From Saccostrea cucullata (Eukaryota): DNA of 64,000 nt. This document shows positions 14,549 through 15,289 of the stretch, one piece after another; the first letter of the stretch is position 1; each line of letters opens with the position of its first letter. Location: contig NW_026926909.1 in the NCBI RefSeq assembly GCF_032062105.1, positions 62,001 to 126,000 of the forward strand. Reading direction: 5' to 3'. The notes under the pieces were generated by a model, which was given only the letters and a program-made list of their open reading frames with translations, had not been told where the DNA came from and made no database searches. Both the position numbers and the translations under genes were made by a program.

Positions 14549-15289
14549 TCAGTGCTTCATTGTACCAAGATAGGACGAAATCGATGTGCTTCCTCCAAAG
14601 TGTTTATTTGCCTGCGTCGTATCCAAAGAATATTGGCGATAAATAAAAAATTCTCCATCTCTACTCGGAAAAGGAATATAAATGGGTTCTCCACATGAAG
14701 AGTTCCGGAAAGGATCTGGCTGGAATGGAAGGTAAATGACATATTTTCTTCCATATGGCCATTGTGTGGTTGCTAATTTTGCATATGGAAGCAAAACTTT
14801 AAGCTGGGGATAAAGCAGTCGATTTGTTTCCCTGTCGAGAGCAACATACATTGGGAATTGGCTAGTTGGGAGTTTGTAAGGAACAAAGTTTGGTCCCGTT
14901 TCCCTTGCATACACTGGTTGTACGGACGCTGGTAACTGAGAGAGGAAGCGAGGGTTGGGTTGAGCACCTACACTATCAGAAGTCCTTAGGTTTGCCCTGG
15001 GTATTTCCGGAAACGCTCGGTCAAATGCGGCTTTTATTCTTGGGAAACAACTGTCCCTTGCATTGTCTGGCAGAGATATTACAGGAAATCCCGGAAGTTG
15101 GGGGTAAAATGCGATTGACTGGATTGAACCGGAAGTGGCATTTATGTCTTTCTGATGAAGAAATCTTGGATCCAGATATTCAGATACAGGGTAGTGTGGA
15201 AAATATGTCCACTGCAAACACTTTAATCTTGAAACAAATGTAAGTAGCAAACACAGAGTAAAAAAATTCAAAAATATCCCCAAGATCAT
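14549..15289 (-). CDS. Gene B: secreted 246-aa protein consisting almost only of the shared Pro/Tyr domain
   Basis: Hydrophobic signal peptide MILGIFLNFFTLCLLLTFVS; domain 14621-15106 aligns with genes A, C, D and E; no low-complexity module. Confidence 0.85.
   Translation of the reverse strand: MILGIFLNFFTLCLLLTFVSRLKCLQWTYFPHYPVSEYLDPRFLHQKDINATSGSIQSIAFYPQLPGFPVISLPDNARDSCFPRIKAAFDRAFPEIPRANLRTSDSVGAQPNPRFLSQLPASVQPVYARETGPNFVPYKLPTSQFPMYVALDRETNRLLYPQLKVLLPYAKLATTQWPYGRKYVIYLPFQPDPFRNSSCGEPIYIPFPSRDGEFFIYRQYSLDTTQANKHFGGSTSISSYLGTMKH

Follow-up and report, generated by a model that had tools for sequence, protein, structure and literature searches.

A predicted small beta-barrel domain shared by seven oyster paralogues, with a possible role in the larval shell matrix

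Background

The glycine-rich shell framework proteins shematrins, MSI31 and prisilkin-39 are adult proteins of low complexity throughout, shematrins ending in a basic, RKKKY-like C-terminus, and the chitin-binding type-2 (CBM14) domain is characterized by a six-cysteine pattern. The succession of leader, low-complexity tract and folded module is a known architecture among shell proteins. Pif and BMSP are secreted proteins that combine VWA or chitin-binding interaction modules with low-complexity tracts (PMC6231486; statements on this and other cited papers apply to the parts of their text and supplements that were searched). Here, we describe a domain of 165 residues that is shared by paralogous genes of the oyster Saccostrea cucullata, four complete copies of which (genes A to D) lie in the window, i.e., the analyzed stretch of 64,000 nucleotides (assembly GCF_032062105.1, contig NW_026926909.1, positions 62,001 to 126,000).

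The paralogues resemble the glycine-rich framework proteins in their putative leader and in the long glycine-rich tracts of genes A and D, the only two with such sequence after the leader. Unlike in those proteins, the common part is a conserved folded domain. No RKKKY-like C-terminus was seen at the ends of the gene A and D open frames, which may stop short of the last exons. As in Pif and BMSP, a folded module is combined with low-complexity tracts in proteins that are probably secreted and part of the shell; however, no VWA or chitin-binding Pfam match was obtained here and the conserved cysteines number zero or two, on which grounds identity with CBM14 was also rejected.

Results

Seven paralogues (A to G) were found in the S. 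cucullata genome, six of which form a cluster in the order F (C9046:45.5 kb), E, A, B, C and D, all on the minus strand within approximately 40 kb. A genome search returned eight matches among nine candidates, six on the contig of the window and two representing copies of gene G elsewhere, and a local profile found no additional domain copy in the window or in 19 fetched genome stretches. Gene E was absent from the original prediction; it starts within the window and exits at its left edge. Each domain copy sits in one open frame without stops and in a single exon. The four complete window copies share 33–44% pairwise identity, with tblastn E-values of 8e-15 to 1e-37 between different genes. 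The domain is rich in proline, tyrosine and phenylalanine, and a hydrophobic stretch follows the first methionine in all seven paralogues, as judged from hydropathy (mean Kyte-Doolittle 2.2–2.9 over 10 residues) rather than by a dedicated signal-peptide predictor. The flanks vary: they contain 61–77% glycine in A and D, are rich in proline, glycine and valine in C and in asparagine and proline in F, and are short in B and E, five of the seven paralogues being free of poly-glycine. Gene A, for example, consists of the hydrophobic N-terminus, a tract of 64% glycine, the domain and a proline/serine-rich tail.

A profile of 11 sequences, run against 1.84 billion representatives in a single search round that leaves a wider range possible, gave 30 matches at E ≤0.001. 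Clusters were checked for 30 proteins (27 of these matches and three from an earlier word-indexed search), and species were named for 11 of them: Saccostrea echinata (2), Crassostrea virginica (3), Magallana (1), Ostrea edulis (1) and Pinctada imbricata (4). All named members are annotated as "uncharacterized" or "hypothetical"; identity is 79% between gene C and an S. echinata protein and 64% between gene B and an O. edulis protein. Word-indexed homologue searches had returned 5, 0 (616–2000 residues) and 5 proteins, counts that are uninformative on family range because the full profile scan recovered members they missed. Public gene models merge adjacent cluster genes, the tail of P0007 matching part of the gene B domain.

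The module itself is absent from Pfam and PDB. None of five window proteins and 12 relatives had a Pfam-A match at the gathering cut-off, the lone sub-threshold row (HTH_23) lying outside the domain, and a PDB sequence search gave no match at E 10. The ESM Atlas yielded no usable match for the domain, and for a full protein only compositional leads below 0.9. No published description was found by family identifiers (C. virginica, CGI), motifs or topic, within titles and abstract starts. No family match occurred in the supplements of PMC10543319, PMC7747718, PMC13144384, PMC5824581 and PMC13190495, although in several of these sequences may be absent or listed under different names, and bioRxiv supplements were outside the scope.

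The domain is predicted to be a compact, helix-capped small beta-barrel without a close solved relative. The gene B model is confident (Table 1), and a Foldseek search against PDB (both models) and BFVD (one model) gave no match at E 0.001, which does not in itself prove a new fold. A beta-rich folded domain outside confidently known folds and families, as originally predicted, is thus supported, with neither predicted disorder nor a confident match to a known fold. Approximately 100 residues of small antiparallel barrels (avidin/streptavidin, 2q03, Diels-Alderase, dirigent) superpose on the model range ~45–170 as weak matches. A homodimer prediction, made without alignment and with an uncertain partner fold, scored 0.00 and speaks neither for nor against a dimer.

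A link to the shell comes from the Crassostrea gigas protein CGI_10025406, which was detected with three peptides in the D-larva shell and not in the adult shell (PMC6231486, Sup S2, S6) and was annotated there without a BLAST hit, Pfam or Superfamily domain, or signal peptide. By eye, its first part is of the gene C type, with the same leader region and domain, and the three shell peptides fall inside the domain. The protein model continues into a gene B-type domain and therefore fuses neighbouring genes. The nearby C. gigas ADP/ATP carrier CGI_10025401 has a counterpart at C9046:147.9 kb in S. cucullata, which supports synteny of the two loci. The domain and family are not recognised in the parts of PMC6231486 examined.

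Sequence features of the domain were assessed in 31 full-length members of an alignment of 38 sequences, several being near-copies, after exclusion of seven partial ones (P0020, P0022, P0026, P0027, P0028, P0031, P0032). The hydrophobic-hydrophobic-proline-aromatic motif (h-h-P-aromatic) occurs on average 4.1 times per domain, as compared to 0.59 in composition-preserving shuffles. Five such motifs had been claimed for the domain, and five aligned sites do exist family-wide, with the fuller form P-h-Y-h-P-[FY] and strict matches in 27, 22, 27, 26 and 10 of the 31 members; strict counts, however, are four in genes A, B and C and three in D. The accompanying by-eye consensus fits gene B but not gene A, which lacks its "PD". 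The sites, at model positions 82, 95, 113, 133 and 151 (spacing 13, 18, 20, 18), each fall on a predicted strand of their own (81–85, 94–98, 112–123, 128–136, 149–154). Block-to-block profile matches span 9–19 columns, and whole-domain profile self-comparison (self-HHalign) revealed no larger repeat, the best off-diagonal probability being 7%. Because each site has a predicted strand of its own and no larger repeat is found, the motif is a recurring strand signature of the modelled fold rather than a repeat unit; of the internally repeated fold first envisaged, only the recurrence of a six-residue strand motif stands. A regular tandem-repeat fold (solenoid, propeller) was rejected on the same probability and spacing.

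The two cysteines described as invariant are so in the window copies and gene E, whereas among the 31 domains 17 have both, 14 neither and none a single one. Among the cysteine-free domains are those of paralogues F and G as well as of the four named Pinctada members, without exception, and the pair is present in five divergent paralogue types, a joint presence that is suggestive of a disulfide. Two changes of the cysteine label are required on the tree, and a single origin is not rejected (p-AU 0.33 in the approximately unbiased test), so the co-occurrence counts as one or two events and not as 31. An invariant pair was rejected. Since 14 domains are cysteine-free and a cysteine-free model keeps the same elements, general closure of the fold by a disulfide is weakened; the two cysteines were likely acquired later, within one oyster sub-group, as a dispensable disulfide staple.

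Gene B is nearly domain-only, and the bounds first drawn for its domain hold on translation (Table 1). Contigs of a related oyster span it with 33–44 differences. Purifying selection acts on the domain: among the 29 changed codons in the differences listed, 11 are synonymous and three non-synonymous within the domain, as compared to 3/10 in the N-terminal part and 0/2 in the tail. A compositional artefact as source of the family was rejected by this synonymous excess, the shuffles and E-values down to 1e-37. The true 3' end of gene B likely lies in a further exon, because the contigs depart from the genome at 14562, with a GT at 14565. High-copy repeated elements, recognised by very deep, partial matches in four of four sequencing runs, lie on both sides of the gene.

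In gene C, exon 3 runs from 17810 to a stop near 17778, both introns are GT-AG and the whole protein has 588 residues; raw RNA reads of the related oyster support the two joints with five and one reads. Genes C and D carry a conserved short F-F-A-P-G-V-like motif ~50–60 residues from their start, with a variant in A; it also occurs in relatives. Gene G extends downstream through at least six further exons to a second domain of ~270 residues (L021:1149-4223, L024:4676-8190, minus strand) without a Pfam match, a fusion also present in Magallana (P0014) and Pinctada (P0025). Its two copies (G000:C9734 and C15311) are near-identical with matching exon layout and are probably uncollapsed haplotypes. 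Opposite-strand and shifted frames across the poly-glycine tracts were rejected as genes.

Table 1. Positions of domain copies, gene parts and neighbouring features (window positions unless a locus is given)
Feature	Position	Strand	Remarks
Shared domain, gene B residues 62-223	14621..15106	-	model: predicted local distance difference test (pLDDT) 88, predicted template modelling score (pTM) 0.85
Gene B open frame, 246 residues	14549..15289	-	hydrophobic N-terminus, linker of ~40 residues, domain, short tail
Gene B cysteine codons (starts)	15049, 14695	-	
Gene B motif sites	14887, 14848, 14794, 14734, 14680	-	
Repeated elements flanking gene B	~13700-14060, 15600-15950, 16500-16950		
Gene A domain copy	7274..7765	-	inside frame 8557..6728
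Gene C domain copy	19229..19723	-	3' end of coding exon 1 (20518..19207)
Gene C coding exon 2	17987..18406	-	Pro/Ala/Ile/Val-rich tail; joints in related-oyster contigs and RNA reads
Seemingly stand-alone open frame	17979-18452	-	is gene C exon 2
Gene D domain copy	23557..24024	-	frame 25029..22942; between two poly-glycine tracts (61%, 77% glycine)
Gene E, 5' half	1..397	-	start at 397; domain from near 118-91, on leftwards past the window (G000:C9046:61603-62091)
F-F-A-P-G-V-like motif	20341 (C), 24879 (D), 8413 (A)	-	
Two adjacent frames between genes F and E	L013:8151-9999	-	presumably reverse-transcriptase retroelement-like (YIDD motif)
Neighbouring frame	L012:3748-4683	+	presumably fascin-like
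Neighbouring frame	L018:1888-2829	+	ADP/ATP carrier
Exon	47127-47549	-	presumably COX11-like

Discussion

We propose that the domain shared by the seven paralogues serves to anchor secreted matrix proteins in the larval shell, a role that we consider somewhat probable. The proteins would be secreted via the hydrophobic leader, after which basic and aromatic residues on the surface of the barrel may attach it to the framework of chitin and acidic proteins in the first shell. The barrel would thereby serve as the constant docking part that holds poly-glycine, proline-rich or asparagine-rich tails as a flexible, variable material phase. Acidic matrix proteins or chitin would suit as partners better than direct calcium binding, because six of the seven paralogues have a basic domain. 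A bolder version, which we regard as unlikely, is that the domain arose in oysters and pearl oysters as a proline-gated beta-barrel of yet unsolved topology and forms a new class of modules that bind a chitin or aragonite framework, with tandem duplication and swapped low-complexity tails producing a dedicated first-shell toolkit.

Several observations weigh against an anchoring role in the larval shell. One role may not fit all paralogues, because the gene G domain is acidic (isoelectric point 5.1) and fused to another domain. The structure models were derived from 11 and 36 sequences, and the barrel is inferred from weak structural matches. Shell-proteome support covers one of seven paralogue types (the gene C counterpart) in one study, with none for the A, B and D–G types. 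The C. gigas larval list of 111 proteins includes house-keeping proteins, among them the carrier CGI_10025401, and its authors do not exclude soft-tissue contamination (PMC6231486). No family motif was found in the Pinctada fucata larval list of that paper or in a supplement on the nacre proteome of this species, both searched in entries of up to ~400 letters. The sequencing runs carry no stage or tissue label; the lack of gene B reads and the depth of ~1–3 for gene C in one raw RNA run (47% scanned) are therefore given no weight.

It is conceivable, if rather unlikely, that the same folded domain builds another extracellular structure, such as periostracum, hinge ligament, larval cuticle, mucus or cement, and that the shell-proteome match reflects carry-over. 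The admitted contamination fits this, a leader with poly-glycine suits many secreted materials, and a relative of gene B resembles cuticle-, extensin- and prisilkin-like Atlas clusters at 0.82–0.83, which are leads only. However, the CGI_10025406 peptides outlasted overnight NaOH cleaning (PMC6231486) and their source protein is predicted to be secreted, not cytosolic, and no CGI_100254xx identifier appears in the main text of a larval adhesive paper (PMC6193008). The recurrence of avidin, streptavidin, nitrophorin and dirigent-like barrels among the weak matches of both models, together with five motif columns that are aromatic in 30–31 of 31 members, would also be consistent with an avidin/lipocalin-type carrier or scaffold by which a small ligand (pigment, lipid, quinone) is brought into the matrix or retained there, which we deem very unlikely. 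Equally unlikely is the scheme of the original prediction, i.e., a fold built from repeats and held by an indispensable disulfide, the matrix being cross-linked by oxidation of tyrosines to 3,4-dihydroxyphenylalanine (DOPA) or dityrosine. The cysteine pair is kept across divergent paralogue types and never occurs singly, and tyrosine makes up 7% of the domain. Yet almost half of the members lack the pair, its co-occurrence amounts to one or two events, and a larger repeat is missing. No tyrosine column is invariant (best 26/31), and tyrosine interchanges with phenylalanine, tryptophan or leucine at the motif sites, which weakens the cross-linking part.

The anchoring role remains a proposal, and the family range is narrow. 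Lineage-specific shell proteins are mostly regarded as orphans without structure, whereas this unannotated family has a compact predicted domain. Gene B, nearly domain-only, is expressible, and natural cysteine-free variants can serve as controls. The link is to the stage at which acidification is felt most strongly, that of the first larval shell, and the family offers a testable case of new folded modules entering shell matrices.
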